Sequence record: PZ476263.1 | DNA: 64,000 bases | Strand: one strand, 5' to 3' | DNA from: a phage | Shown: piece by piece, positions 2,420 through 52,255 of the stretch | Layout: each line of letters begins with the position of its first letter | How positions within the stretch are numbered: position 1 is the stretch's first letter | The notes under the pieces: generated by a model | The model's database searches: none | Told to the model about the DNA's origin: nothing | What the model saw: the letters and a program-made list of their open reading frames with translations, nothing else | Translations under genes and position numbers: made by a program

Positions 2420-4036
<1,617 letters not shown>

Positions 4037-4074: not shown

Positions 4075-5658
4075 ATGACGAATTCTGTAGTAGGTATGGC
4101 AGGTCACAATAATGGTGTATTTTATGGATACTCTCTTTATGACTTGGAGCAAAAAAGAAAGATAGCCTTTAAAGATTTAACTAAGGGTGACTCAGGGGCG
4201 AAGGGCGATAAGGGTGATCCTGGTCCAGAAGGTCCACAAGGTGATAAAGGAGATACCGGAGAGCAAGGCCCTGTAGGACCTCAAGGTCCTGCTGGTGCAC
4301 CAGGGCAACAAGGTGTGCCTGGTGAAAGAGGACCTCAAGGTCCCGAAGGCCCACAAGGCCCTCAAGGCCCAATTGGTCCCGAAGGACCAGTAGGACCAAT
4401 CGGCTCCCAAGGTCCCGAAGGTCCTAAAGGAGAGCAAGGTGAACAAGGCCCTTCTGGATCTCAAGGTCCTCAAGGATTAAAAGGGGATACAGGGGCACAA
4501 GGACCTCAAGGTCCCGTTGGACCCAGAGGAGAGACAGGTGCAACAGGACCTGTTGGACCTAAAGGGGACACAGGCCCAACAGGTCCAAAAGGAGAAACGG
4601 GTGAACAGGGACCCATTGGTCCGCAAGGACCTAAGGGTGATACAGGTCCCGTGGGTCCTGCAAGCTTAACCTTCAGAGGTTTCTATGAACCTCTTGAAGA
4701 ATACAACGAAAAGGATACAGTAGCTTATAATGGTTCTACTTATTTTGCGTTAAGAACCAGTACAGGAGCAACACCGGATATTTCTCCCGATGACTGGGCA
4801 TTACTTGCAGCTGAAGGTGCAGTTGGACCACAAGGACCTATGGGACCAGAGGGTCCGCAAGGTATCGCTGGTGCTCAAGGTCAGGAAGGCCCTATAGGAC
4901 CGCAAGGTGAACAGGGTCCGGTTGGACCTGTTGGCCCACAAGGCCCACAAGGTCCTGCGGGTCAGGAAGGAATAGAAGGCCCTCAGGGACCTCAAGGAGA
5001 AGAAGGCCCTATGGGACCTCAGGGACCACAAGGGATTGTAGGACCAACAGGTCCACAAGGCCCTCAAGGCCCCAAAGGGGACACTGGTGCAGTTGGACCA
5101 CAAGGTCCTCAAGGCCAACAAGGTCTTGATGGTCCACAAGGCCCTGCTGGTCCGCAAGGCGAAAGAGGTGTTACTGGACTAACCGGACCCCAAGGTCCCA
5201 AGGGTGATATCGGCCCTGTGGGTCCGGCTGGCCCTCAAGGTAAGGATGGTAATTCTTACACTATCTACAACTGGGGCAACATATCAACGGGCTATGGTGA
5301 GATGGTAATACCTGGTGTTACTAACACAGTATTCAGAGTGAGACGAGTAGGAACCACATTAGAATACAGTGTACTTAGTAAAGGTGGTGCGAATAGATAC
5401 CTTGACTTCCATACCATAATTCCAGCCCCCTCTACAGGGGGCGCTGTAATTATCCAATCAGGAAATACAACATTGACATCCTCCAGCTCTTTAAATGTTG
5501 TTACATCTGCACCTCCTGGTCTTGGTTTTCGACCAATATTCATCTCTTTAAAAGAGTGGGGAGATAGGGCAATAGTAACCATAGAGGTTTTCCACACAGG
5601 TAGAAGTGGAGATTCCAGTTACCCAATACATGTTCGTATGCTAACGACGAAGTATTGA
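4075..5658 (+). CDS. collagen-like fibre protein, paralog of 2420-4036
   Basis: Same N-terminal motif ('[22 protein letters not shown]') and Gly-X-Y architecture, different C-terminal domain. Confidence 0.65.
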
Positions 5659-28473: not shown

Positions 28474-28502
28474 ATCTTACCCCAACCTTTATTACCTGTC
28501 AA
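28474..28502 (-). promoter_or_regulatory. sigma70-like promoter
   Basis: TTGACA-N17-TAAGAT on minus strand. Confidence 0.45.
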
Positions 28503-28942
28503 TACTCTGCGCGAGGTTTAACTACACCAGCTTTAGAAATTGGAAGCTCATCTGCATCTTTACCACGAAGACTATTGATCCATTCCCGTTCTGTCATGAC
28601 ATATTCGTGGTTGTCCTCTTTTGCTAGGCGAACATAAATTTCATAAGCTGACTCTCCGACGGGTCCCATATTACCTCGATCACCTTGTGGACCAGATAAA
28701 ATCTTTTCTACCTGTGCTTTTTCAACGACAGGTTTTGATTTGTATAGCGACCAAATCAGCAGGCCAGTCCAAATAGCCAGACCCGCAAAAGGGTAAATCG
28801 ACAATACAAGTCCCAACAAAGAAAGGATTAAAATAATGTGTTTGTTAAGATGGTCCCGCTTATAAGCGATAACTACAGGAACAAACCAGATCGCCAATAC
28901 AATTAAAGACAGAAAAAGAAAAATTACTATTGCAACATCCAT
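28499..28942 (-). CDS. membrane protein, superinfection-immunity-like N-terminus fused to fibre-like motif
   Basis: Two to three hydrophobic helices ('PVVIAYKRDHLNKHIILILSLLGLV...GLLIWSLY'), then 'GPQGDRGNMGPVGESAYEIYVRLAKED...EREWINSLRG'. Confidence 0.4.
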   Translation of the reverse strand: MDVAIVIFLFLSLIVLAIWFVPVVIAYKRDHLNKHIILILSLLGLVLSIYPFAGLAIWTGLLIWSLYKSKPVVEKAQVEKILSGPQGDRGNMGPVGESAYEIYVRLAKEDNHEYVMTEREWINSLRGKDADELPISKAGVVKPRAEY

Positions 28943-28957
28943 AATGACCTCCTCAGA

Positions 28958-29161
28958 TTAATCGCTTAAAGTAACAGTATCGAAAAACACATCCCGCATC
29001 CACTCTTCAGCGGGACGAATGTAATAACCAGTTTTACCTAGAGATTGGTAATATTTTAAAATCTCTTTGGCAATATCTTTAGTCAAACCTGCCGCTACAA
29101 TACAGCCACCAGGTCCAGAGACTACATGTGTTTTGTATTTATCATTTTTGTTTTTGCTCAT
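28958..29161 (-). CDS. hypothetical protein
   Basis: 67-aa ORF. Confidence 0.3.
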   Translation of the reverse strand: MSKNKNDKYKTHVVSGPGGCIVAAGLTKDIAKEILKYYQSLGKTGYYIRPAEEWMRDVFFDTVTLSD

Positions 29162-29450
29162 TATTCTCTCCCTCTAATTTTTGTTTAAGTTTTTCTGCAT
29201 CCCAACTGTATGAGCTTGGAAGCCCCATTTTAACGTCACTATCTGTAAATGTACATAAAACACCTTTTGCGTCCTGACCCCGTTTAATTATAGAACTATT
29301 ATTATAGTTCGGTTGACTTTTACAAAATTTGTGCAGACTAATAATTTCACTTGGGGTTAAGGATGGTAATTTAGAATAAGAATCTGGTTTTTCATCTTTT
29401 AAATCACAACCTGCAAGAAGAAAAATAAAAGCAACGATTAATTTTTTCAA
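29142..29450 (-). CDS. putative lipoprotein
   Basis: Signal peptide with lipobox (MKKLIVAFIFLLAGC), TTG start with SD GGAGGA. Confidence 0.4.
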   Translation of the reverse strand: MKKLIVAFIFLLAGCDLKDEKPDSYSKLPSLTPSEIISLHKFCKSQPNYNNSSIIKRGQDAKGVLCTFTDSDVKMGLPSSYSWDAEKLKQKLEGENNEQKQK

Positions 29451-29451
29451 T

Positions 29452-29601
29452 TCACGATCCTCCCCAATACTTAAACAATTCTACACATGCGATTGTTGAC
29501 AGTATGAACCATATGGCACTTACAACATTTACATACAGGAATCTACAACCTGCCATAGAAACCATTATAAAGAGGCAGACAAAAGTTTTATAATCAATCA
29601 T
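29452..29601 (-). CDS. small hydrophobic protein (49 aa), not in ORF track
   Basis: ATG overlaps upstream stop (ATGA); product MIDYKTFVCLFIMVSMAGCRF... has two hydrophobic segments. Confidence 0.25.
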   Translation of the reverse strand: MIDYKTFVCLFIMVSMAGCRFLYVNVVSAIWFILSTIACVELFKYWGGS

Positions 29602-30002
29602 TTCTTACTCTCCTTTTTTGATTTTTCGTCTGCATCTACCTGATCTTCCGCCAGACTAATTATCTGATAAACTGTTTCAGGGTTTTGAAGAAACTCTGTA
29701 TATTTCTTGATCCGAACTACGAGTTTTGAACGAACTTTTCTTTCTCTTTCTACTTGCTTGAAGTAATGACCCTTCTGAGTATAAGTCCACGCATAGTAAA
29801 CTGTTTTTGCACGATGGCGGGTTGATTTTAATTTCTCCGCCAGCTCCGTATACGGGTCATTATCTGTGGGACCAAAAAGAAAAATTTGTGCAAAATTCTC
29901 TTTCATAATTTGAGATTCTTCAGGTGTCAGTCGTGGACACTCTTCGGAACCGTACTTAGGACCTTTTACCATTGGTTTTTTAGGATAAACTTTACTATTC
30001 AT
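29598..30002 (-). CDS. hypothetical protein
   Basis: 134-aa basic protein. Confidence 0.4.
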   Translation of the reverse strand: MNSKVYPKKPMVKGPKYGSEECPRLTPEESQIMKENFAQIFLFGPTDNDPYTELAEKLKSTRHRAKTVYYAWTYTQKGHYFKQVERERKVRSKLVVRIKKYTEFLQNPETVYQIISLAEDQVDADEKSKKESKK

Positions 30003-30077
30003 ATTAATACCTCACTCCCGTTATGTTACTTTTACTCCGATGTAAGAGGGGTATTATAACCCCTCTCGATTTATTTA

Positions 30078-30707
30078 TCAATCACAACTTGAAGAACTTG
30101 AACCGCTATCATAAGAGCTACTGTCATAAGAGCTGGATGAACTCTCATAAGATGATGAAGAAGAACTTGAAGAACAAGATCGACTAGGTTCATCGCTCGC
30201 CATAACAGCGGCATACGTTCCAATACCTCCTAAAACACCTGCTGTTAATGGTACGTCATTGTTGCTGTTGACTTGAGTTGTTCCAGATCGAGATGTCGAA
30301 TTATGGGCCTCTTTAATAAATTTACGTTTAGCCTTTGGCGGCAGTTTCTTACCTTGTGCATAAACAGGAAGGTCAACTTCTTTCAATTTCTCATCTAAAG
30401 GTTTAGCCTTTTTAGGTGGAACTTTTTCAAGCTTAGAAACTTTAACAGTTTTCTTGTCGATGTTAACTCCAACGACGACTTCATTTTCTTCCAGATCGGT
30501 TTCAAATTTTTGAATCTTCGGCTTAGTGAAACGAACACTTTCAGACTTAACATTTAAACCAACAGCTTCAACATATTCTTTTACCTTTTGGGGAGCCTGA
30601 ACATTGTTCACATACTTCCGAGAATTAATATACTCATCAACTTTTGAAGTTTCGATCTTGACAGGTACAAAAATAGATTTCACCCAAGAAAATAATTTTT
30701 TAAACAT
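30078..30707 (-). CDS. hypothetical protein with Ser-rich C-terminal tail
   Basis: 209 aa, Lys-rich middle, one hydrophobic segment, C-terminal 'SCSSSSSSSSYESSSSSYDSSSYDSGSSSSSCD' from repetitive DNA. Confidence 0.4.
   Translation of the reverse strand: MFKKLFSWVKSIFVPVKIETSKVDEYINSRKYVNNVQAPQKVKEYVEAVGLNVKSESVRFTKPKIQKFETDLEENEVVVGVNIDKKTVKVSKLEKVPPKKAKPLDEKLKEVDLPVYAQGKKLPPKAKRKFIKEAHNSTSRSGTTQVNSNNDVPLTAGVLGGIGTYAAVMASDEPSRSCSSSSSSSSYESSSSSYDSSSYDSGSSSSSCD
30080..30180 (-). repeat. simple-sequence (Ser-codon) repeat inside CDS
   Basis: Reiterated short units (tcataagagct and gaagaacttgaa variants) on the plus strand. Confidence 0.4.
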
Positions 30708-30739
30708 AACTTCCTCCTTTCAATTTTTAATTCGAGGCT

Positions 30740-30768
30740 ATTGTAATTCAATAGCCTTTGCTTGTCAA
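30740..30768 (-). promoter_or_regulatory. sigma70-like promoter with -10 inside an inverted repeat
   Basis: TTGACA-N17-TACAAT; 9-bp inverted repeat AGGCTATTG/CAATAGCCT spans the -10. Confidence 0.5.
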
Positions 30769-30774
30769 TAAAAT

Positions 30775-31077
30775 TTAAATACCTTCTTCATCTTTTGGTC
30801 GACATTTCTTTTCCATAGCTTTTAGATTCTTATCAGTTTCTTCTGCGAGATCACGAAGTTTTTTAGCAAGAGGTTCACCAACAACGAACCATTTCTTTAC
30901 CGCAATCTTTGTCAACTTCGATAACCAATCGGCGAAATCTTCCATACGCCAAGCTACCCAACTGATAATCGCTGCAAAAATGTTTACAAACATCAACATA
31001 AATCGATGTGGGTTAATAATGCAAAGAATAACGATAAGGGAAAACATTTTTACAAAGTTAAATACAATTTTACTCAT
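30775..31077 (-). CDS. small membrane protein
   Basis: 100 aa, two hydrophobic helices. Confidence 0.35.
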   Translation of the reverse strand: MSKIVFNFVKMFSLIVILCIINPHRFMLMFVNIFAAIISWVAWRMEDFADWLSKLTKIAVKKWFVVGEPLAKKLRDLAEETDKNLKAMEKKCRPKDEEGI

Positions 31078-32458: not shown

Positions 32459-32734
32459 TTATTCTTTTTCGAAAGGGCCGCCAAGGGACACTTTAAGATC
32501 AAAAGATTTTGATAAAATAAAATCAGCGTCCTCATTAAAGAAGTCAAACTGAATAAAACATTCGTTTAGGCTCACACAAACCCCAACCGATTTTACACCG
32601 TTGACATCTTTCATCAGATATTCATATTCAGGTAATAATTTTACATCATAAAAATAAAAGACTCCAGAATCAATTTCGTCCCAACCATCCCAAGATTTAA
32701 CAAATTTACCTTCAATACCTTTTAAGTCGCTCAT
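32459..32734 (-). CDS. hypothetical protein
   Basis: 91-aa acidic protein. Confidence 0.35.
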   Translation of the reverse strand: MSDLKGIEGKFVKSWDGWDEIDSGVFYFYDVKLLPEYEYLMKDVNGVKSVGVCVSLNECFIQFDFFNEDADFILSKSFDLKVSLGGPFEKE

Positions 32735-32763
32735 TCTAATCTCCTCTCGTTGTTGATGTGATG

Positions 32764-32792
32764 ATTATAGGCTTCCTTGCCCAATGTGTCAA
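32764..32792 (-). promoter_or_regulatory. sigma70-like promoter
   Basis: TTGACA-N17-TATAAT (consensus hexamers). Confidence 0.5.
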
Positions 32793-34805
32793 TTAAAAAG
32801 TTACTTCAATTACACGATTAAATTTACCAGCTACTTTCAGAATCACAGATTTGCCAGAGGTTTCTGAGAAACCGATACCTGCCAGTTGCTGATCAGATGG
32901 TGCAACTTTCATCTTCTCTGCCAGAACTTCAAATACCTTCTTATGTTTGTTCAGCTCTGGGCGAAGGTATTCATTATAGAATCCACGAGTACCTTCTGGA
33001 TTTGCACAACCTTCCAACATAAAGAAGTAGTGGCGCAGGCCAGTTTTGTTGTTATCCCAATGGTTAGGTGAATTCATAATTACAGAGACTTTCTTAAAGT
33101 TTTCTGTGTTGATTCCCCATACCTTTTTGGAGACTGGTGCAGCCGCCTTCATTTTGCCAGTAATCTTTTCCACCTTACCATTAACAATCTTCACAGAGGC
33201 CACCTGAATTTTGTTGCCATCCTGCGGATTGTTCTCGGCACTCATGTTGTAAATTTCCCCGTTCACCTCCACTTGGATAGAGAAACCTGAACGAGTATTT
33301 GAACGACGACGATAGTTGTGAACAAAGATACCATAAACCCCATCAACGAGATCAGAATAGTAAATATTCTCAACTGGATCCACATCATTCCCAATTCCGC
33401 CTGCATTCATATCTACATCCAATTGACCACCCATTGGAGATCGACGATTACGGTTACCGAAGTAAACTGTGTAATTGCCTGGTTCAACAACAGACAGATC
33501 AAGGTCATCCCCGTTTGACCAAGACAAAGATACACGGAAAGGTGAATCTGTATTGCCGCCTGCTGCTTTAACGCGCTCTTTAATAGAGTCGGTTACTTCA
33601 CCATTGTACGACCAAGAGAAGTTGTTGTCCCACTTAAGCATGTTTGTAGCATCTGCATGTACAGGTGCGATCAGGGATACAAAGTTACCCGCCAGATTGT
33701 TACCAACAAACGCATCAATTCGTTCAGCCGATGGAAGAATATTCTTAAAGAAGTGCTCAGCACTTACCTTTTCCACCTTGTTCAGACTACGAGATGAACC
33801 TTTTGCAGACTCCTCTGAAAGCTCCTCAAACACATTGAACAGCTTCTTAGCTTCACGGTTAGCAAAGAGTACATTGTTAATCGTAATGTCTTCAATCGTC
33901 GCATATCGACGTGCAAGAGAGTCTTCCATACCCAACTCTGCAACTGTTTTCTGAGCCTGTTCAATCATACCTTTGGTGATCAAAGACGTTGGGCGCTTAT
34001 AGTTTGTCGGAGCCATAACTTTTTCCCAAGCTTTAACCGCAGCTTCCAGATCCATATCGTTAGATAAGTTTTCAAGCAACGTTCCTAAAGCTGTGTTACG
34101 GAATTTAAGAACATAGTTATGTTCAACTGCCATCGTCCACAAGAAACCTTGTTTCTCTGAAATGGAGCGACGATCATATTCCTTTTTCAGTTTAATAAAC
34201 AGGTCTACTAAACCACGGAATTCATTACCGCGATACAGAGAGCCTTGAGCAGTCAGTTCTTTGATCGTCTCAGCTGCATCAAGAGTAAGTTCTTTCATGC
34301 TGCGCTCAAAAACTTGAACAATACCACGGATATCGTTCTGCTTGGTTGGGATCACACCTTTATCATACACAACATTGCTCGGAAGAACTGCATAAAAGTG
34401 ATTATAAGTTACAACCTGCCCATTTTCAATAACGTTGTTTTTCTCTAAGCCAACACGGCGTTCATGATGGAAAAACTGATCAACAACATTGCTATTACGA
34501 ACTTTGTTGGCAAGAGAATCAACCACGGCCTGATAGTAGCCAGGGACAGTGATATCCCACACGGACACGATCTCATTGTCGACAAAAGTAACTACACGAC
34601 CAACGTCACGAATAAAGTTTTTGCAGCAATTGCAATCGTACTCACGACGCTCACGGTATACATTGTTAGTCCCTTCAGGGAAAGAATCAAGGTAAAGGTT
34701 GTAAAATTCATCTTTATCAATATCGACAACGAACAGTCCGGTTTTAGACATTTTAGCCAGTTGTTTCTGAATCTCGGTTACGAAAGCGTGGTAGTTGTTA
34801 GACAT
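32793..34805 (-). CDS. large early protein of unknown function
   Basis: 670 aa, N-terminal Cys cluster 'YDCNCCKNF'. No ligase KxDG or P-loop motif seen. Confidence 0.5.
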   Translation of the reverse strand: MSNNYHAFVTEIQKQLAKMSKTGLFVVDIDKDEFYNLYLDSFPEGTNNVYRERREYDCNCCKNFIRDVGRVVTFVDNEIVSVWDITVPGYYQAVVDSLANKVRNSNVVDQFFHHERRVGLEKNNVIENGQVVTYNHFYAVLPSNVVYDKGVIPTKQNDIRGIVQVFERSMKELTLDAAETIKELTAQGSLYRGNEFRGLVDLFIKLKKEYDRRSISEKQGFLWTMAVEHNYVLKFRNTALGTLLENLSNDMDLEAAVKAWEKVMAPTNYKRPTSLITKGMIEQAQKTVAELGMEDSLARRYATIEDITINNVLFANREAKKLFNVFEELSEESAKGSSRSLNKVEKVSAEHFFKNILPSAERIDAFVGNNLAGNFVSLIAPVHADATNMLKWDNNFSWSYNGEVTDSIKERVKAAGGNTDSPFRVSLSWSNGDDLDLSVVEPGNYTVYFGNRNRRSPMGGQLDVDMNAGGIGNDVDPVENIYYSDLVDGVYGIFVHNYRRRSNTRSGFSIQVEVNGEIYNMSAENNPQDGNKIQVASVKIVNGKVEKITGKMKAAAPVSKKVWGINTENFKKVSVIMNSPNHWDNNKTGLRHYFFMLEGCANPEGTRGFYNEYLRPELNKHKKVFEVLAEKMKVAPSDQQLAGIGFSETSGKSVILKVAGKFNRVIEVTF

Positions 34806-34836
34806 TTAATATTCTCCTTTGTGTTTTGATGTGGTA

Positions 34837-34865
34837 ATACTACTTACTTTTCTTTTTGTTGTCAA
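34837..34865 (-). promoter_or_regulatory. sigma70-like promoter
   Basis: TTGACA-N17-TAGTAT upstream of the 670-aa gene. Confidence 0.45.
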
Positions 34866-35010
34866 CCTCTTTGTAGAATTCTTTTAAAAATTCTTCGGGA
34901 GGGACTCCCTTTTTATAGTAAGGTAAGCAATCAGAGATCACAAACCACCTGTGTGTTTTCATAGACCAAACGATCTTCTCACACTCGGCAATATACTGGA
35001 TAAAGGTCAT
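34840..35010 (-). CDS. small protein (56 aa), not in ORF track
   Basis: ATG overlaps upstream stop (TAATG); overlaps the downstream promoter. Confidence 0.2.
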   Translation of the reverse strand: MTFIQYIAECEKIVWSMKTHRWFVISDCLPYYKKGVPPEEFLKEFYKEVDNKKKSK

Positions 35011-35216
35011 TAATCCTTTTTCCCATAAGAAAGAGATTCAAACTGAGATGAATCATTTTCAAAGGACACTTGCTTAGAGTCTTGTTGAGTCTGCTTGTCG
35101 ATCTGGATCAGGCATGTTTCAATCACCGACCCTAAAGGCATTCTCATGCTTTTGCTATAGGCAAGTAAAAACTTAAGTGCTTCTGCTTCTTCTTTTGACA
35201 TGTTTAGTGTAATCAT
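35010..35216 (-). CDS. hypothetical small protein
   Basis: Start at the internal ATG with SD AAGAGAG. Confidence 0.3.
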   Translation of the reverse strand: MITLNMSKEEAEALKFLLAYSKSMRMPLGSVIETCLIQIDKQTQQDSKQVSFENDSSQFESLSYGKKD

Positions 35217-35235
35217 TGTTTTCTCTCTTTTAGTA

Positions 35236-35421
35236 TTATACGTGAACAACAAACCAGACTTGATTTTTATTATTGTAAACTTCATAAGATTTTAGTATGG
35301 AGTAACAATATTTTTGAAATCCTTTTACTAAGATCGTTGTTTTCTCTTCAGGGATTTCTGAAATATCTACATCAAATATTTCCATAACTACCTCACCGCT
35401 TTCAATTATGCGAATATTCAT
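35236..35421 (-). CDS. hypothetical small protein
   Basis: 61-aa ORF. Confidence 0.25.
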   Translation of the reverse strand: MNIRIIESGEVVMEIFDVDISEIPEEKTTILVKGFQKYCYSILKSYEVYNNKNQVWFVVHV

Positions 35422-35431
35422 ATCAGTACCA

Positions 35432-35806
35432 CTATTTAAGTTTTTTCATCTTTTTGATCTGTGATGGCAAAATATAAGTTACTTCATTGAAGATTTCAAG
35501 ATCTTCTTTTTCAACCCATACTCGGCCCGTGTCTGGACAGAAAGTATGACCAACGAGGACAGTCATTGTGTTCTCTTCCCCGATCCCGTAGCAGGGTTGA
35601 CCATCACCATAGTTACTGAAAACAAAGTTTTCATTAGGTTTAAGTGCTTCACCTTGGACAAAGATAACGTAACCAGCTTCTTTCATCGCTTGGATTTCTT
35701 TTGCTCGTTCAAAGCCTTTCATGAAACGAGTGTAAGAGTGTTTATTGGCGAAATCTTTAATTTTGATCTCTTCTAACTTGATGTGGCGGATGTTCAAATG
35801 AGACAT
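35432..35806 (-). CDS. hypothetical protein
   Basis: 124-aa ORF. Confidence 0.4.
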   Translation of the reverse strand: MSHLNIRHIKLEEIKIKDFANKHSYTRFMKGFERAKEIQAMKEAGYVIFVQGEALKPNENFVFSNYGDGQPCYGIGEENTMTVLVGHTFCPDTGRVWVEKEDLEIFNEVTYILPSQIKKMKKLK

Positions 35807-35818
35807 TTTGTTTTCCTC

Positions 35819-35995
35819 TTATTTGTTAATGAATTGGCTAAGGATTTCGATAAGATCTTTAGCTTGTTTCTTGTCGAGAATCACGCTGTCTCCTGCGTGG
35901 AGGATTTCAATAACATCCTCTTCTGCATGATATTCAACTTCCTTTGCATGAAAATCTTCAGTTTCTTTAATCACTTTTACAATGCGCTGTGTCAT
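35819..35995 (-). CDS. small acidic protein (58 aa), not in ORF track
   Basis: ATG with SD AAGGAGAG; the 108-aa plus-strand ORF here is antisense to it. Confidence 0.3.
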   Translation of the reverse strand: MTQRIVKVIKETEDFHAKEVEYHAEEDVIEILHAGDSVILDKKQAKDLIEILSQFINK

Positions 35996-36105
35996 CTTGT
36001 TTCTCTCCTTTTCTCTCTTTCATCGTTTAGTTTCGATAAGGTGATAGTACATCAACTAACCAATTATTATTTAGCAATTAGTGCTAAACGCCATAATCAA
36101 TCTTA

Positions 36106-36348
36106 TTAATTTTCATTTAATACCCTTAGTGATTTCTTTTCACAAATATCCCTGAGCCTGACTACCTCTCCTATTAGATAGGAAATAGCCTTAGCTTGTA
36201 CTGGTTCATCGTAATCCCCAACTGTCCCAAACACTTCATCGAGAGATAGGAAGAACCCTGAAGAGTAAATACTGTTTTGATCTTCTATAGCACGGTCTGC
36301 ATTAAATTTAATATCTTCCAGGGTGCTATTACTGATATTCATAGTCAA
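36106..36348 (-). CDS. hypothetical protein
   Basis: 80-aa ORF, ATGA overlap with downstream gene. Confidence 0.3.
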   Translation of the reverse strand: MTMNISNSTLEDIKFNADRAIEDQNSIYSSGFFLSLDEVFGTVGDYDEPVQAKAISYLIGEVVRLRDICEKKSLRVLNEN

Positions 36349-36725
36349 ACTCCATAATCTATCTTAACAAGCTTCCCTTTGTAGTATCCAAAGTTTTTAG
36401 GAAATGCGTCGTACTCGAAGAAATCTCGGTCAAGGGTTCTATCTTTATCGTTATCAATCTCATCATAAAGTTTTTGTAGATCAGCTTTAAATAATTCCTC
36501 ATTTTCTACTGGTTTAGCCTTGTGCATCACAACCATAAGTCCGAACCTGTTTGAGTGAGCTATTGGGCACAGATGCGGGTTATTATACCCTTTCCACTGA
36601 CCCTCTGTCATATTGCTGAGCATTCCTTGAACAAACGCCTTCCATGAATTAAATCTTGGGAACTTAATCGCATACTTGTTTGTGATTATGACAATTCTCG
36701 TCCCGCCACTCCTGTTTATCTGCAT
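36345..36725 (-). CDS. hypothetical protein
   Basis: Start set at the internal ATG with SD GGAG, because the ORF-track start lies inside the promoter -10. Confidence 0.35.
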   Translation of the reverse strand: MQINRSGGTRIVIITNKYAIKFPRFNSWKAFVQGMLSNMTEGQWKGYNNPHLCPIAHSNRFGLMVVMHKAKPVENEELFKADLQKLYDEIDNDKDRTLDRDFFEYDAFPKNFGYYKGKLVKIDYGV

Positions 36726-36765
36726 CTTAATATCTCCAGACCTCGTTACTTGTTTCGATGAGGGC

Positions 36766-36793
36766 ATCATACCAGAATGAATCTGTGTGTCAA
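36766..36793 (-). promoter_or_regulatory. sigma70-like promoter
   Basis: TTGACA-N16-TATGAT on minus strand. Confidence 0.4.
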
Positions 36794-36852: not shown

Positions 36853-37755
36853 TTAGTGACAATCTCCCCAGCTGTATCCACACAAGTATTCCCCTGTGAT
36901 ATGCACTGGTGATTTCATCATCTTAGCTGCTTGTTCGACACAACGAACAACCATCTCTCCTACAGGGCAGTATGTAATAGTGAAGATACCATTTTCATCT
37001 GGATCACACTTAAACTTACCTTCCTTGACACAATGGCCTTCGAGGACCATCTTCTTAGCAAGACATGCCTCAACAAAAGCTTTTGCATCAGCTTCGTTAT
37101 CAAACTTCCATACCTTTTTGAACTTCTCCGGCACTTCAAGCTGGTACTCGTCATGGTAATAAATTGTACGACGTACACCTTGATCATACCAACCTTTTTT
37201 AACCAGCTGCCAATGCAACAGGATACCTACCAAGTCAAACATGGCAGCACCACCGTTCTGTTGGAAAGCGTTAAGCAATGAGTGTTTGGATCGGGTATAG
37301 ATCTTACGACCATCAAGACCATAAATGAATCGTTTACCGTTGGCTTCCCAAAACTTCTCAAGTGCTTCTTTACGACCTTTCAAACCTAAGTTGCTATCCC
37401 AAAATGCATCGATTACTGCTTGTGCTTTCTCCAATGAAATTCCAAGCATGGATGCAATCTTAGCTGCTTGAGCACCGTACATAATTCCATAGGTGATCCC
37501 CTTTCCTTCCCCACGAGATACTTTCTTACCCGCTGCCTTGGTATATGCTTCTGCGTTTCGACTATGAGCATCACCACTTTCCATAATTCGGAGGTAAGCA
37601 CCACCATCGAATTCATAACTTCCCCATGCAGCGACCATACCCTCTAAGTTAGAACCGTCTATACCTACCTGATACTTACCCTCGGGTACAGTGAAAAGGT
37701 CACGCATTTCTTTACCTAGAAGAACCTTAGGATCAGGCTTCGGCACGTTAGCACA
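36853..37755 (-). CDS. DNA polymerase (family A), 3' exon
   Basis: Contains motif A-like 'VGIDGSNLEGM', motif B-like 'ITYGIMYGAQAAKIA' and motif C 'YHDEYQLEV'. Frame stays open upstream of the GTG ('..ANVPKP', cf. PNLxNIP). Confidence 0.75.
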   Translation of the reverse strand, partial: CANVPKPDPKVLLGKEMRDLFTVPEGKYQVGIDGSNLEGMVAAWGSYEFDGGAYLRIMESGDAHSRNAEAYTKAAGKKVSRGEGKGITYGIMYGAQAAKIASMLGISLEKAQAVIDAFWDSNLGLKGRKEALEKFWEANGKRFIYGLDGRKIYTRSKHSLLNAFQQNGGAAMFDLVGILLHWQLVKKGWYDQGVRRTIYYHDEYQLEVPEKFKKVWKFDNEADAKAFVEACLAKKMVLEGHCVKEGKFKCDPDENGIFTITYCPVGEMVVRCVEQAAKMMKSPVHITGEYLCGYSWGDCH

Positions 37756-38959
37756 ATATGTTCGTTAAAGGTCGCAACTCTTTAACCGGGATCGTATACA
37801 CCTGAAGAAATATCTCTTCACACTTTCGAGTACGATTCCTGTTTCTTTTGCTACGTCACAGAAATCTTTCCCATCAAGTATCATTTTTGTTATCTCTAGT
37901 TCCAACTCTTCTTTAGTTTTGTTTCTTAACTTACTGACCCCAAAAGTTTTATCTTCGGCAAATTTACCGATAAAAAATCTAACTGTCGGTTTCTCTAAGT
38001 TTAGGATCTCACAAATCTTTAAAAGAGTCGCACCTTTCCACCATAAAGATCTTGCTTCTTCTGCAAGATGTTTCTTTTCTTCCACTTCAGAAACACATTT
38101 CCCCATGTCGAAAGTTTTTAAGTATCTTGCTGCAAAGTGCCTTTCTTGTCCAAGGTCCAGAGAGATTTTTGCATACGAATCACCTGCCAGATATCTTTTA
38201 TGGATGTGCAGATACATCTCTCCATAGTTATCAAAGCCGGATTGTTTTGCTCTATTATCTCTTTTTGCCATTGAACTTCTTTCAGATGCGATAGTTTTTA
38301 TGGACTCACCAAAAGAGTTTCCAATTGCATCTGGACTAGGACTCACCGCTGAAAAAGTATTATTAGTCATGTTATAGAATTCTGTATTGTTGGCTGCATC
38401 ATTCTCTAAAAGAACTTTTTCTTCGATTTCACGAAGGAGATCTCTTTTGTCTACAACTTCCAACACCTCAGCTACAAATCTATGACCACTTTTTAAATCC
38501 TTTTTCATATCTGGATTGGAAGAGGACCCAAGATAAGGTTTTCCACTCTTAATCGAGATTATTGTGGGGATTCCATCCACATCTATCACTTTGCATTCAC
38601 TTTTACTTCCGATATATTTGTTCGGGTATTCTTCTTTATCGATGTTTTTCAAGAGATAAACAATGTTCATGTATACGTCCTCCGCTGTATCTTTCAACAC
38701 AGTTCAGACTATATCTTTGACACACTAAAGGATAGCTGAACCAATCTACCCCTAATGTATCACAAACCACTTCGATTGTCTACGCTTACAATCTACGCCT
38801 TCCGGCTAGTCGTTGAACCTTCTACCTGTCTGGTAGCTTGGCTGCTGATTGCCCAATCCTTTAACTTTTTAAACCTTCGCTTTGTATTCCTACTCGCAGT
38901 GGTATAAAGGCTCTAAGGGGTTCCCAGCAATTCAATTTGTTTTATACTGAGGCAGCTTT
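37756..38959 (-). mobile_element. group I intron (with homing endonuclease ORF) in the DNA polymerase gene
   Basis: Minus-strand RNA carries the conserved elements in order: P-like AAUUGCUGGGAAC (38920-38931), Q-like AAUCAGCAGCC (38840-38850), R-like GUUCAACGACUAG (38806-38818), S-like AAGAUAUAGUC (38707-38717). Boundaries approximate. Confidence 0.7.
37765..38670 (-). CDS. GIY-YIG family homing endonuclease (intron-encoded)
   Basis: Starts 'MNIVYLLKNIDKEEYPNKYIGSK...' (IVY...YIGS, cf. I-TevI GIY...YVGS); SD GGAGGA; ORF lies 3' of the intron core. Confidence 0.6.
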   Translation of the reverse strand: MNIVYLLKNIDKEEYPNKYIGSKSECKVIDVDGIPTIISIKSGKPYLGSSSNPDMKKDLKSGHRFVAEVLEVVDKRDLLREIEEKVLLENDAANNTEFYNMTNNTFSAVSPSPDAIGNSFGESIKTIASERSSMAKRDNRAKQSGFDNYGEMYLHIHKRYLAGDSYAKISLDLGQERHFAARYLKTFDMGKCVSEVEEKKHLAEEARSLWWKGATLLKICEILNLEKPTVRFFIGKFAEDKTFGVSKLRNKTKEELELEITKMILDGKDFCDVAKETGIVLESVKRYFFRCIRSRLKSCDL

Positions 38960-40694
38960 AGTTTACCACAGTGTGTTTACGACGGCCTGTATTCGTTATT
39001 CCAGTATAACGTGCAGGTAATTTACCGTCCACCGCAAGTCGAGGATGGTTTAACCAACCTGTATCTACTTTATCCTCTTTCAAAGGATCAAGAACACTTC
39101 GACGGTTACGAAGAGATAGCCATTTTACAATCTGCTTTGCCATATCACCATCGACTCGCTCAAGGTTAGGACAAAGGCCCTGCTGATCCTTAAGCTGCGG
39201 TGATGTTGGTAATGCTCTTGCCTTCTTCCTGAAGAACTTATACATCTTCTCTTTATCTTGCCACTGCTTACCACTGATACCTAAACTTTTCAGAATCAGA
39301 TCGCGATATTCAGTCTGGTCAAGATCATCAATGTATTGACGAACAATGATATCGACTTCGTTATCGGGACGTTGTTTCTTAAACTGGTCCTTCGTCGCAT
39401 CTTTGGTTCGCCACAATGTTGGGACCCAACCCGCATCACGAATAAGGAATTTTTTAACGTCATCCTGATTACCAATACGCATCGGAATCATAATATCCGG
39501 CATCTTTTGATCTTTGATATCCATCAATGCACGGGCCATGTCTTCCGGTGGCAAAGGTACAAGATTTTCCTTTTTCACATTTTGAGAACGAATAAATTCA
39601 GCCATTTTGGATTCATCTTCTACACCATGCTCTACACAATACTTAATTGCAGCAGATGTGAGTGAACCATCGCCCTTAAACGGCTTACTTGGAGCGCCTT
39701 TAAATTCAAGAGCTTCCCAATTCACATTGTAACCTAACTTCTCTAACCATTTCCAGCCCGTACCAGAAAGAGATCCATCTCCTTTAAACGGCTTAGACGG
39801 GAAAGTAGGCTGTGCTGACTTGGACATCTCTTTCTTCGGCAGCTTTGGTTCAACCTCTTCTTCAATTTCTTTCATCATCGTATCAATACGATCACGCAAA
39901 GCTAAACCTTTCTCCACGTCGAAAGTAACACCCTGAATTTCTTGCTCAACCATCAAATAGTCGGTAAGCATACCTCGACGCAAGGCATTCTTCCAATTGA
40001 TGAGCTTCATCTTCTTCGGATCTTTGTCCGATTCATCTTTGTACATGAAACGTTTATCATCCGGCATAGAGTCACATGAAATTTCTTTCATGAGGGCATC
40101 CCATACCATTTCGTTGATGATTACGTCTTCAATAATACGATCACAATATTTCCACAAAGGGAGTCCACGCCAATCTTCGATTGCTACCTTCTGGTTTGCT
40201 ACTCGCATACCCCAAGCTTCAAGTCCATGAGGGCCTACAGGCTTCATTTTACCTGTAACTGGGTTCTTTACCATCTCGGGACAACCGCGCGGCAGAGGGC
40301 GATCTGGATACAGTGTACGGGACATTGAAAGGGTATCGAAGATGTTAACTTGTTTACCATTGATAGTCCCCATGCAACCAGGGTCTGCAAACATATCGTA
40401 TGTTGTTCCAAACATCTTTTTAAACAGCTGTAAGTCATAGCCGAAGATATTATGGATAGCAACAGCTTTTGGTTCAGTCACAAACCACTCATTAAGTTCT
40501 TCCAACTTACGGATCTTAAAGTTCTTACCTTTGGATTGAATAAACTTAACCGCTTGCTCGTAGCCTTCGCGGTTCGGATCGATAAAAATATTCCAATTGT
40601 CCTTTTTGTACTCTTTAAAAAGAACACAGTGAACAAGATCAACTTCTGTCAACAGGCCGTTAGCCTCTGCATCTCCAATAAACAAACCTTTCAT
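38958..40694 (-). CDS. DNA polymerase (family A), 5' exon with 3'-5' exonuclease domain
   Basis: N-terminus 'MKGLFIGDAEANGLL' matches the T7-type Exo I motif; ends '...YTGITNTGRR' (cf. TGR..PNL.NIP) before running into intron sequence. Confidence 0.75.
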   Translation of the reverse strand: MKGLFIGDAEANGLLTEVDLVHCVLFKEYKKDNWNIFIDPNREGYEQAVKFIQSKGKNFKIRKLEELNEWFVTEPKAVAIHNIFGYDLQLFKKMFGTTYDMFADPGCMGTINGKQVNIFDTLSMSRTLYPDRPLPRGCPEMVKNPVTGKMKPVGPHGLEAWGMRVANQKVAIEDWRGLPLWKYCDRIIEDVIINEMVWDALMKEISCDSMPDDKRFMYKDESDKDPKKMKLINWKNALRRGMLTDYLMVEQEIQGVTFDVEKGLALRDRIDTMMKEIEEEVEPKLPKKEMSKSAQPTFPSKPFKGDGSLSGTGWKWLEKLGYNVNWEALEFKGAPSKPFKGDGSLTSAAIKYCVEHGVEDESKMAEFIRSQNVKKENLVPLPPEDMARALMDIKDQKMPDIMIPMRIGNQDDVKKFLIRDAGWVPTLWRTKDATKDQFKKQRPDNEVDIIVRQYIDDLDQTEYRDLILKSLGISGKQWQDKEKMYKFFRKKARALPTSPQLKDQQGLCPNLERVDGDMAKQIVKWLSLRNRRSVLDPLKEDKVDTGWLNHPRLAVDGKLPARYTGITNTGRRKHTVVN

Positions 40695-44645: not shown

Positions 44646-44975
44646 TTATCCTCGGATTGAAAGTTTCGCCAAATAAAATATAACCAGGTACAAGCCGTAT
44701 GCTAACGCAACCGAACTCAGTATTGTAATTGTGACAGGCAAGGCCCATAAAAGAACGATAATCATCATCGTTAAACCGAATGCTCCACCAAAACACTCTA
44801 AAAAAGCTTCACTTCCGAACTTAATGGGGTCCAAAGATTTCTTTATCTTGTCCCTTAGGAAAAGAAAAGACATAATAACAAATATTGCGATCCCCAGCAA
44901 GACCCATTGGGTAACAGAGGTGTTTTGTCGGATAAAATGATACCATGCATCATAAATTACTGTCAAGTTTTCCAT
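44646..44975 (-). CDS. membrane protein
   Basis: 109 aa, three hydrophobic helices. Confidence 0.4.
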   Translation of the reverse strand: MENLTVIYDAWYHFIRQNTSVTQWVLLGIAIFVIMSFLFLRDKIKKSLDPIKFGSEAFLECFGGAFGLTMMIIVLLWALPVTITILSSVALAYGLYLVIFYLAKLSIRG

Positions 44976-45301
44976 TAGGTCCTCACTGATAGTTTAACAA
45001 GGATTTCAATAATTTTTACAAGTACAAAGATTAAGACTGCAAAAATAGACACAAAAATAATCAAAGGTAAAAGGTATATTGTCCCTGTGATCAATGCTGA
45101 AATAAGTAAGGAAAAGAAAATCTCCGGTACACCATCCCAACACCACAGTTGCTTACTCTTTTTGTATTGATACCTTAAAATACCAAATAAAGATACAATT
45201 GAAAAAGATATGAAAATGATAAATGGTGTTTCCTTCGAGATCAAGAAACTTATTACATCATTAAACCAAAATATTACGACTCTCTGTGCGAATTCAATCA
45301 T
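44975..45301 (-). CDS. membrane protein
   Basis: Start at the ATG overlapping the upstream stop; three hydrophobic helices. Confidence 0.35.
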   Translation of the reverse strand: MIEFAQRVVIFWFNDVISFLISKETPFIIFISFSIVSLFGILRYQYKKSKQLWCWDGVPEIFFSLLISALITGTIYLLPLIIFVSIFAVLIFVLVKIIEILVKLSVRT

Positions 45302-45507
45302 TTCTTTTTCCTCTCTTTCTTCTCTGGTTTTACATCGCAAATTTTGGCTTCATATGCAATTGGTGTTACATAGCGCCAAGTCTTTTTGTAATGGTCGAGG
45401 AGTTCTCTCATATTCTCCTCGTCCTTTGCCCAACCACAAACGTGAGGTATTTCATCAACAGACATTTGACACTTAATATACCAACGCGTTTCTGTGTTTT
45501 TATTCAT
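45298..45507 (-). CDS. hypothetical small protein
   Basis: Start at the ATG overlapping the upstream stop; basic C-terminus. Confidence 0.3.
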   Translation of the reverse strand: MNKNTETRWYIKCQMSVDEIPHVCGWAKDEENMRELLDHYKKTWRYVTPIAYEAKICDVKPEKKERKKK

Positions 45508-50149: not shown

Positions 50150-51502
50150 TTATTGAAAAATTGTCGGGAACTTTTCCTTATAGAAAGCCACAACATCTTG
50201 ATCAACGATAACATCCTTTACTCGCAAACGCTTAAGTAAGCGAAGACCGCTAGTATCTGTCGCACGAGAAAGCATAACGTAAGCCTGACCAGGTGAGAAT
50301 GTCCCATATCCTAGATCAATGTTAACTTTACCAAGTGTAAGACCCTGTGCTTTGTGTCCGGTGATCGCATATCCCAACTTAAATGGATACTGAATATATT
50401 CACCAATTGACTTATCAACCAAAACTGTTTTCTCTACCATCTTCTTAATGGTCTTCTTAGTCCCATCCGGCATATCAATCTCTACGTCTTCGAGAACATT
50501 TTTCTTTTCAGGGACTTGTGTAATATTGTTCCAAGTGAACGGTGCAATCGGGACCATTTTACCATCGATCTCTACAACAACGAAAGTTTTAGCGATACGT
50601 CGAATAATTCCAACAGTACCATTCACATAATCAGGGGTCTTTTTCTTCTGATCATTGTCATTAACGACAATCATAACCTTAAGACCTTCTTTGAGCATTA
50701 ATTTTTCATTAACAGGACGCTCAGTAAATTCACCTGTGATACGTGCATTGAATTCATGAGGTTCTGCCTTAATTTTAGAAAATTCTTTATTGTTAATCTC
50801 TTCCGCGAGCTTGTTTGTTGTTGTAAGAGTTACAGCACCCTCTAAAGAAGGCCCATAGCATTTACTGTTAAAGTAATTCACCGCATCAGGAATGTTTTTA
50901 CCGATACGAATATTATTGAGATGTTCAGCAAATTCTGGATCTGTTTGGCGATGAACCTTAGGCAAGTAAGCATAAGTCATATCCAAGGATTCCCAAGCCT
51001 CACAACCAAAAGGGATTTCTTTACCGTGAAGTTCACGGAATGTTGGAACTTCTTCTTTTTTAAGGACAGGCTTGATCTGGAAGCCATCACCAAACATGAT
51101 TACCTGCAAGCCACCGAAAGGCTCATTAACTTTACGATGATAACGCAGCTTCATATCGATCTCTTTAAGCTTGTCACTACGTGTCATGCCGATCTCATCG
51201 AATACGATTGCATCCAATGCTTCAGATGCCATAAGCATAGCGGGTTTCTTTGATTTAGCTTTATAATCTTCGCTTGTGGTTACTCCAAAGGTGAGTCCAA
51301 AAGCTTTATGAGTCGTCACACCACGGATATTCAATGAAGCTACGCCAGTTGGTGCGACAAAAAGAAAACTGTCAGCAAAGAATTCACGCAGAGAAGCGAT
51401 CATCATACTTTTACCACTACCACCAGGGCCTGTAACGAAAACATTCTTCCCTGCCATAATCTCTGCCATAGCCGCTTCTGTACCGATAACATAATTACTC
51501 AT
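50150..51502 (-). CDS. Dda/Pif1/RecD-like superfamily 1 DNA helicase
   Basis: Walker A 'VTGPGGSGKS', 'FVAPTGVAS', Walker B 'IVFDEIGM'. Confidence 0.65.
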   Translation of the reverse strand: MSNYVIGTEAAMAEIMAGKNVFVTGPGGSGKSMMIASLREFFADSFLFVAPTGVASLNIRGVTTHKAFGLTFGVTTSEDYKAKSKKPAMLMASEALDAIVFDEIGMTRSDKLKEIDMKLRYHRKVNEPFGGLQVIMFGDGFQIKPVLKKEEVPTFRELHGKEIPFGCEAWESLDMTYAYLPKVHRQTDPEFAEHLNNIRIGKNIPDAVNYFNSKCYGPSLEGAVTLTTTNKLAEEINNKEFSKIKAEPHEFNARITGEFTERPVNEKLMLKEGLKVMIVVNDNDQKKKTPDYVNGTVGIIRRIAKTFVVVEIDGKMVPIAPFTWNNITQVPEKKNVLEDVEIDMPDGTKKTIKKMVEKTVLVDKSIGEYIQYPFKLGYAITGHKAQGLTLGKVNIDLGYGTFSPGQAYVMLSRATDTSGLRLLKRLRVKDVIVDQDVVAFYKEKFPTIFQ

Positions 51503-51692
51503 TAATGTATTCTCCTACTTCTTCAGGATAAAGGACGTATGATTTACCATCTTTAAGGCTCTGTGCATAATAACAGAATACACTACCATCGGAAACAACT
51601 TCATCATACTCGATGTCTAAAACTTTAAAAATATCATTTGCTTTTGGATGATCGTCTCGGTCGCTGTAATCAGCCTTTAAAAAGATTTTCAC
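51495..51692 (-). CDS. hypothetical small protein
   Basis: GTG start with SD GAGGAG overlapping the hydrolase stop; the 90-aa track ORF would overlap the hydrolase C-terminal frame. Confidence 0.3.
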   Translation of the reverse strand: MKIFLKADYSDRDDHPKANDIFKVLDIEYDEVVSDGSVFCYYAQSLKDGKSYVLYPEEVGEYINE

Positions 51693-52205
51693 TTTTTCTT
51701 CTCCTCTTTGTCTTTGTAAAAAACATGATTTTCTATTGTAACCGTACGCTTGAGAAGTTTTCTCCAAATTGGTTTAACCTTCTTCGTATGATAGTACAGA
51801 GATCCGTATGTCGGGTCAAGTCTTTTATAAAGTAATTCATTATCTTTTATTTTGTGAACAAACTTAGATATGTTTATCGCAACTTCCCATGAATCTTTAT
51901 CAGTGATTCGATAATCAGATTTAACAAGTGTCCATGAAAATTGTGAAGACTGGTAAAAACACCCCCTTCATGGTGGTAGGGAACTTATCATGTTTCATTC
52001 TGTTCATGGTCACAAAAGCAACAGCCATCTGACCATTAACTGTCTCACCTCTCGCCTCCATATAGACATTACAGGCAAGAGATTTTACAGAATTATCCTT
52101 CTTACTGCATTTATGGATAACCTTCTGTGCTCTCTCTTTGGCATAAGTAAAGCCTGGTGCCAGAGACAGAGTACAAACTAAAACACCTAAAACAATATTT
52201 CTCAT
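51689..52205 (-). pseudogene. SleB-type cell-wall hydrolase with signal peptide, frameshifted
   Basis: N-terminal frame: signal peptide plus 'YMEARGE...MAVAFVTMNRMK...FPTTMKGV'. The continuation 'QSSQFSWT...YYHTKKVKPIWR' is in the +1 frame, with the break in an A5/C5 homopolymer near 51956-51966. Confidence 0.5.
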
Positions 52206-52226
52206 CTTTCCTCCAATTGAGGACCC

Positions 52227-52255
52227 AGTTTATCACTGGGTCGCTCTCTTGTCAA
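52227..52255 (-). promoter_or_regulatory. sigma70-like promoter with -10 inside an inverted repeat
   Basis: TTGACA-N17-TAAACT; 8-bp inverted repeat GACCCAGT/ACTGGGTC spans the -10. Confidence 0.45.

Follow-up and report, generated by a model that had tools for sequence, protein, structure and literature searches.

Frame break in the SleB-like hydrolase gene of a Septuagintavirus-related phage: probably a young pseudogene or a sequencing error rather than programmed frameshifting

The hydrolase locus

We analysed a 64 kb stretch of DNA from an rV5-like E. coli phage (64,000 nucleotides, 40.7% GC, sequence record PZ476263.1), the whole of which is here called the window. On its minus strand a gene for a secreted, SleB-like cell wall hydrolase is present in two pieces that lie in different reading frames. 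The features of the locus, in the direction of transcription, are the following.

52222..52255, minus strand: sigma-70-like promoter, TTGACA-N17-TAAACT with TG before the second hexamer (consensus match and conservation)
52210..52214, minus strand: ribosome-binding site GGAGG, read from the sequence, intact, 4 nt before the ATG
51921..52205, minus strand: N-terminal ORF as written, 94 codons, ATG at 52205 and TAA at 51923..51921
52140..52205, minus strand: predicted Sec-type signal peptide, residues 1–22, MRN / IVLGVLVCTLSLA / PGFTYA, followed by KE
51954..51968, minus strand: break site, codons 80–84, AAG GGG GTG TTT TTA
51689..51967, minus strand: C-terminal two thirds of the hydrolase domain, in the +1 frame only, TGA at 51691..51689
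51495..51692, minus strand: downstream ORF of 65 aa, acidic and hydrophilic, its GTG start overlapping the hydrolase stop (GTGA)

As written, the N-terminal ORF gives the product MRNIVLGVLVCTLSLAPGFTYAKE...YMEARGE...MNR...KFPTTMKGVFLPVFTIFMDTC, in which the stretch ...CNVYMEARGETVNGQMAVAFVTMNRMKHDKFPTTMKGV comes after the signal-peptide region and the last 11 residues before the TAA are out of frame and unrelated to the hydrolase. The predicted signal peptide begins with an n-region that is short and charged, continues with a hydrophobic core spanning residues 4–22 (Kyte-Doolittle 1.86) and ends in a cleavage-type T-Y-A motif followed by K, a pattern that is kept in the relatives. The continuation of the hydrolase, ...YQSSQFSWTL...GSLYYHTKKVKPIW...HVFYKDKEEKKK, is read in the +1 frame, which is open from 51967 to the TGA. 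None of ATG, GTG or TTG was found in this frame within 51689..51967, so the C-terminal half cannot be translated on its own, and its independent translation was ruled out. A signal-peptide-like N-terminus, a stop after 94 codons and a continuation in the +1 frame had all been described in the original prediction, which was made from the letters alone, and on these points it agrees with our analysis.

Directly upstream of the gene, the sigma-70-like promoter overlaps an 8-bp hairpin (GACCCAGTgataAACTGGGTC). This promoter-like element occurs once in the window and is kept in relatives better than the flanking coding sequence. On the other side of the gene, the closest relative likewise has a 65-aa ORF at the same position, downstream of the hydrolase. 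Small ORFs with predicted hydrophobic segments cluster at 28499–31077 and 44646–45340 (minus strand), possibly the holin-like cluster mentioned in the original prediction; none of these adjoins the hydrolase gene. Elsewhere, the window carries three consecutive tail-fibre-like genes with collagen triple-helix repeats (53–1729, 2420–4036 and 4075–5658, plus strand), the first of which also has a fibritin C-terminal domain. No tRNA genes were found in the window.

Domain, fold and orthologues

Deletion of one base (one T) at the break gives a repaired protein of 171 aa, which matches Pfam PF07486 Hydrolase_2 over profile positions 1–100 of 100 (78.1 bits, E 8.8e-22; the gathering cut-off is 27 bits). 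The 94-aa ORF alone covers only profile positions 1–30, with 30.7 bits. The YMEARGE of the window protein aligns with the YGESRGE of the SleB catalytic domains 4F55 and 4FET, and Glu50 of the EARGE motif is invariant in eight homologues. We take Glu50, the first Glu of the E-x-R-G-E motif, to correspond to the catalytic residue in SleB. SleB itself acts as a lytic transglycosylase, and its catalytic glutamate is essential (PMC12331253). Both the SleB/Hydrolase_2 motifs recognised in the original prediction and the hydrolase homology that they implied were borne out by these alignments. As to the bond cleaved, annotations alternate between amidase and transglycosylase.

A structural view was obtained through the orthologue P0001, which is 98% identical to the window protein and for which an AlphaFold2 model reached a mean pLDDT of 75.3. 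The sole significant PDB matches found with Foldseek were 4f55 and 4fet (probability 1.0, target TM 0.63–0.67, 128–133 aligned columns). As this match takes in essentially the whole target, the model indicates that one compact domain spans the break site. The 94-aa fragment retains the presumed catalytic Glu50 and lacks about 70% of the fold, and it is presumed inactive.

The phages found to be collinear with the window, Escherichia phage A73 and its relatives W70, A7_1, A5-4, LTH01 and UPEC06, are all members of the Vequintavirinae (proposed genus Septuagintavirus), in which a family of SleB-like hydrolases has been described (PMC11370258). Around the hydrolase gene, identity to these six E. 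coli phages is about 78% in DNA and 83–85% in amino acids, and uncultured relatives are about 90–93% identical to the window DNA. The original prediction had suggested a comparison with related phages, and the gene proved to be intact wherever we looked. In six of six phages tblastn returned a single piece across the break site, i.e. an unbroken gene of 171 aa; the A73 and UPEC06 annotations give it as a single CDS of 516 nt whose neighbours match those in the window. The intact 171-aa P0001 (98% amino acid identity) lies on contigs from four separate metagenome assemblies/sequencing runs, one of them 141 kb long, and the homologues P0002–P0008 are likewise in one frame. The single uninterrupted ORF of about 171–183 aa that is expected of the group is absent from the window, where a stop follows after 94 codons. 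By its high identity and its conserved neighbourhood, the window gene is the orthologue of the secreted SleB-like hydrolase gene of the Vequintavirinae (Septuagintavirus/Certrevirus-type). Such an orthologous gene is already known, and in this respect the finding is ordinary and covered by known biology.

The break site

On the plus strand, the break site contains an A5 run (51955–51959) and a C5 run (51962–51966), which are T5 and G5 on the coding strand. The site as written in the window is GGGGGTGTTTTTACC, and its in-frame, relative-like counterpart is GGGGGTTGTTTACC. Codon by codon, the closest relatives read ATG AAA GGA GT-T GTT TAC CAG (M K G V V Y Q) and the window reads ATG AAG GGG GTG TTT TTA CCA G at the same site, so that the two differ by one inserted base (codons 82–84) together with an adjacent G->T change, and not by a pure change of run length. 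The proposal of the original prediction, that the frames join if one base is removed from either run, was correct as to the place of the junction and the restoration of 171 aa; it did not hold as a simple lengthening of a run, given the adjacent G->T change. The minimal history is one insertion plus this substitution, most simply one complex event, GTT -> TTTT. Every one-base repair yields G-V-F-Y or G-C-F-Y, i.e. a Phe at position 83, which in 157 family representatives is occupied by Val (143), Ile (12) or Leu (2) and never by an aromatic residue. At the preceding position, 82, 155 of the 157 have Val or Ile. A nearby direct or inverted copy able to template GTGTTTTTAC was searched for and not found.

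Over 6.3 kb aligned to L006 at 93% identity there is exactly one gap, the break itself. Relative to L005, any indel other than the break either has a length divisible by three, belongs to a compensated pair in a divergent gene or falls between genes. A tblastn comparison of the A73 ORFs with the window showed no other frame break in real genes, save in the intron-interrupted DNA polymerase. The window contains 295 homopolymer runs of 5 or more bases, all of them 5–6 bases long; runs of 7 or more are absent. In a gene-position collection, an exact look-up with the 94-aa product gave no match, and flexible DNA patterns spanning the break, which permitted either run length, found none in IMG/VR or the JGI metagenomes, so the collections searched hold no second copy of this allele. 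The flexible break-spanning pattern had been validated by its matches to the window and to L005–L008.

The polymerase gene just mentioned, of family A (36853–40694, minus strand), is split into ORFs of 578 and 297 aa; in the closest relative it is a single gene of 876 aa. The insert has a full-length match to the Rfam group I intron RF00028 (73.8 bits, E 4.7e-18, core at 38685–39052), and the intron is followed by a 311-aa ORF (37765–38700) with weak SegE-type GIY-YIG and HTH matches (E 0.0025, below the gathering score). The polymerase gene of A73 is interrupted at a different place. About 4 kb of the window (~32730–36780) have no counterpart in A73 and include a 670-aa ORF (32793–34805, minus strand) with no Pfam match.

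Age of the break and selection on the gene

Downstream of the break, reading in the +1 frame, we counted 9 synonymous and 2 non-synonymous differences to the closest relative (dN/dS ~0.05). When changes were assigned to lineages with A73 and UPEC06 as reference for polarity, the whole gene showed 10 synonymous and 3 non-synonymous changes (V19F, V83F and V146I) in the window lineage, and 8 synonymous and none non-synonymous in that of the closest relative. Four neighbouring genes (4.2 kb) gave 104 synonymous to 10 non-synonymous changes versus 112 to 9; window-specific non-synonymous changes are not in excess, and the sequence is thus otherwise clean. The gene has therefore been under purifying selection for nearly all of the history of the window lineage. 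Because this holds even for the downstream half, which is without a start codon of its own, the break is either very young or an artefact.

Mutation or sequencing error

The leading explanation, which we hold at about even confidence, is a young pseudogene created by a recent genuine mutation in a conserved hydrolase gene. The conserved gene encodes a single domain with the SleB/CwlJ lytic-transglycosylase fold behind a predicted Sec signal peptide, and it has its own ribosome-binding site and a sigma-70-like promoter that is kept in relatives. At codons 82–84 a lesion that is very recent and not programmed, in effect GTT -> TTTT, would then have shifted the frame, and the gene as written would yield only a truncated secreted fragment of 94 aa with the EARGE motif. 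The extra base would in that case presumably be present in the phage DNA and not just in the reads. Lysis would rest on a separate Peptidase_M15 endolysin, which in relatives is encoded elsewhere in the genome; since the relatives carry this enzyme, loss of the hydrolase gene would plausibly be tolerated. A mutation is favoured because two edits are needed, a family-invariant residue is lost and the rest of the sequence is clean, and also because the gene product, going by the report on its homologue, is toxic and the clade has a second endolysin. As any one-base repair leaves Phe83, a simple run-length miscall on a functional gene becomes less likely. Against this, the lesion sits in adjacent G5 and T5 runs, a typical context for errors, and a downstream half free of further lesions, with its dN/dS of ~0.05, is equally expected of an artefact. 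Moreover, every genus of the subfamily is reported to have the gene (PMC7344957), an argument for its usefulness.

It is also quite conceivable, at somewhat below even confidence, that the phage has an intact 171-aa gene and that the extra base, possibly along with the G/T call next to it, reflects a mistake in the consensus of G5-T-G-T5 that arose in sequencing or assembly. In assemblies made from long reads only, one such error in 64 kb is realistic. The homopolymer context is in keeping with such an error, and so are the intact ribosome-binding site and promoter-like element and a C-terminal half perfectly preserved under purifying selection, in a gene that is conserved across the subfamily (PMC7344957) and intact in every relative examined. 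Even so, with 295 runs of 5 or more bases in the window, this is the sole frame break found, and the 4.2 kb of neighbouring genes show no window-specific non-synonymous excess. A single-base correction would still leave Phe where 157 of 157 representatives have Val, Ile or Leu, so an error would need two edits or would have to sit atop an unusual substitution. On balance, we place a genuine recent mutation slightly ahead of a sequencing or assembly error, and consider it very probable that one or other of the non-programmed explanations applies.

Possible programmed +1 frameshifting

Programmed frameshifting, which the original prediction had listed among its options, is disfavoured by the fact that every relative is unbroken, and we regard it as improbable. 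It would take the form of a +1 shift on GUG UUU UUA, in which tRNA-Phe moves from UUU onto the UUU that overlaps it, making UAC the following codon (candidate shift site of ~40 nt around the break, ACCATGAAGGGGGTGTTTTTACCAGTCTTCAC; predicted junction peptide of the recoded product, ...GVFYQSSQFSWTLVK). The Shine-Dalgarno (SD)-like string AAGGGGGUG immediately upstream would aid a prfB-like shift, and the outcome would be a low dose of a full-length, otherwise toxic hydrolase. Several features of the site are compatible with this. UUU_U would permit perfect +1 re-pairing of the P-site codon, and AAGGGGGUG, with 2 nt between its G5 and the UUU codon, could form 9 base pairs with the anti-SD, one of them G.U. 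The shifted product, GVFYQSSQFSW, is in register with the family, and the C-terminal part has no start codon, which would make frameshifting the sole route to its expression.

However, the break is absent from the six related phages, the four close metagenome contigs and the other homologues. The unbroken relatives also have an SD-like string (AAAGGAGUU; the AAAGGAG equivalent), because it encodes K-G-V. The 0-frame A-site codon, UUA, is neither a stop nor rare (15.8 per 1000, the second commonest Leu codon in the window), in-frame TTT TTA is found 6 more times in window genes, and the 0-frame stop lies 11 codons beyond the break. The recoded product would still carry Phe83 at the family-invariant position. 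A 106-nt fold around the break was no better than shuffles (z -0.22). Given that the break is not conserved, that the next 0-frame codon is common and that no RNA structure was detected at the site, programmed +1 frameshifting is not supported. Efficient slippage during transcription takes an A/T homopolymer of about 8 bases or more. With T5 and G5 the site falls short of this length, and no run in the window reaches 7.

A variant that combines both ideas is that a real lesion at AAGGGGGUG-UUU-UUA happens to form an accidental prfB-like shifty site, where a few ribosomes would make the full-length secreted hydrolase. We consider this very unlikely; if true, recoding would have emerged only recently at this site and would act as attenuation, reducing the dose of a protein that is reported to be toxic. 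Recoding and useful leakiness together receive only a small share of our confidence. Finally, the idea that the match is spurious, i.e. two chance ORFs and no hydrolase gene, is hardly credible in view of the full-length Pfam match (E 8.8e-22), the 98% and 85% identical orthologues in conserved synteny and the fold, which matches SleB, and nothing was found in its support.

Other lysis genes and implications

The suggestion that this may be the only murein hydrolase of the window fits the Pfam matches: 93 other ORFs of the window matched 30 Pfam families and, among the 25 of these that were listed, no other peptidoglycan hydrolase family was present. In UPEC06, the protein annotated as 'putative endolysin' matches Peptidase_M15_4 (E 6.3e-15) and its gene is found in the region for nucleotide metabolism, to which the window does not extend. 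A separate endolysin of this peptidase type (M15) is encoded by the relatives (PMC11370258). A role of the SleB-like hydrolase as the only endolysin of the phage was accordingly rejected for the clade, which has the M15 peptidase (PMC11370258).

Whether the break is a recent mutation, as we prefer, or an error, annotation should treat the two pieces as a single, disrupted gene for a SleB-like hydrolase (either as a pseudogene or in a form corrected according to the reads), and labels such as a 94-aa 'cell wall hydrolase' or a recoding site are to be avoided. If the mutation is real, a conserved secreted SleB-like hydrolase would be dispensable for the propagation of this phage, which would help to separate its role from that of the M15 endolysin in the Vequintavirinae. 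Beyond annotation and the respective roles of hydrolase and endolysin, we see no wider consequence.

Comparison with known systems

The germination-specific lytic transglycosylases SleB/CwlJ of Bacillus (4F55, 4FET) have the Hydrolase_2 domain, the E-x-R-G-E motif and the fold in common with the phage protein. [quoted passage not shown] Its source is also a phage whose Gram-negative host has no muramic-delta-lactam cortex.

The recoding site most similar to the break is that of prfB, where AGGGGG lies 3 nt before CUU. In the +1 frameshift architecture described for prfB (RF2), as in the window, an SD-like G-rich element is closely followed by a P-site codon that can re-pair after a +1 shift (PMC6815119). 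The window site differs from prfB in that its A site holds neither an in-frame stop nor a hungry codon and in a spacing of 2 nt versus 3. It differs further in that the break is conserved in no homologue and the SD-like string is explained by the coding of K-G-V.

Closer to the phage itself, the SleB-like proteins of Certrevirus (CB7_83) and of Cronobacter phage CR3 (CR3_087) share about 54–56% amino acid identity and the Hydrolase_2 domain with the window protein. CB7_83 is reported to carry a signal peptide and to be toxic to E. coli cells that express it; it has been linked to lysis, and homologues of it are reported from all genera of the Vequintavirinae (PMC7344957). In Certrevirus, a 65-aa holin candidate with two transmembrane domains overlaps the 3' end of the hydrolase gene (PMC7344957). 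The overlapping 65-aa ORF of the window is, in contrast, hydrophilic and has no transmembrane segment, and here the hydrolase gene is broken.

The nearest counterparts are the SleB-like hydrolases of Septuagintavirus (A73_73, the homologues of W70, A7_1 and A5-4, and QUL77346.1 of UPEC06, a 'putative cell wall hydrolase SleB'), which have the same 171-aa frame. Their neighbours also match those of the window, with a 127-aa ORF upstream and, downstream, a small ORF and then a PIF1-like helicase, and the upstream promoter-like element and hairpin are common to both. The Septuagintavirus copies are unbroken; in the window copy one base is inserted, and residues 19 and 83 are Phe.
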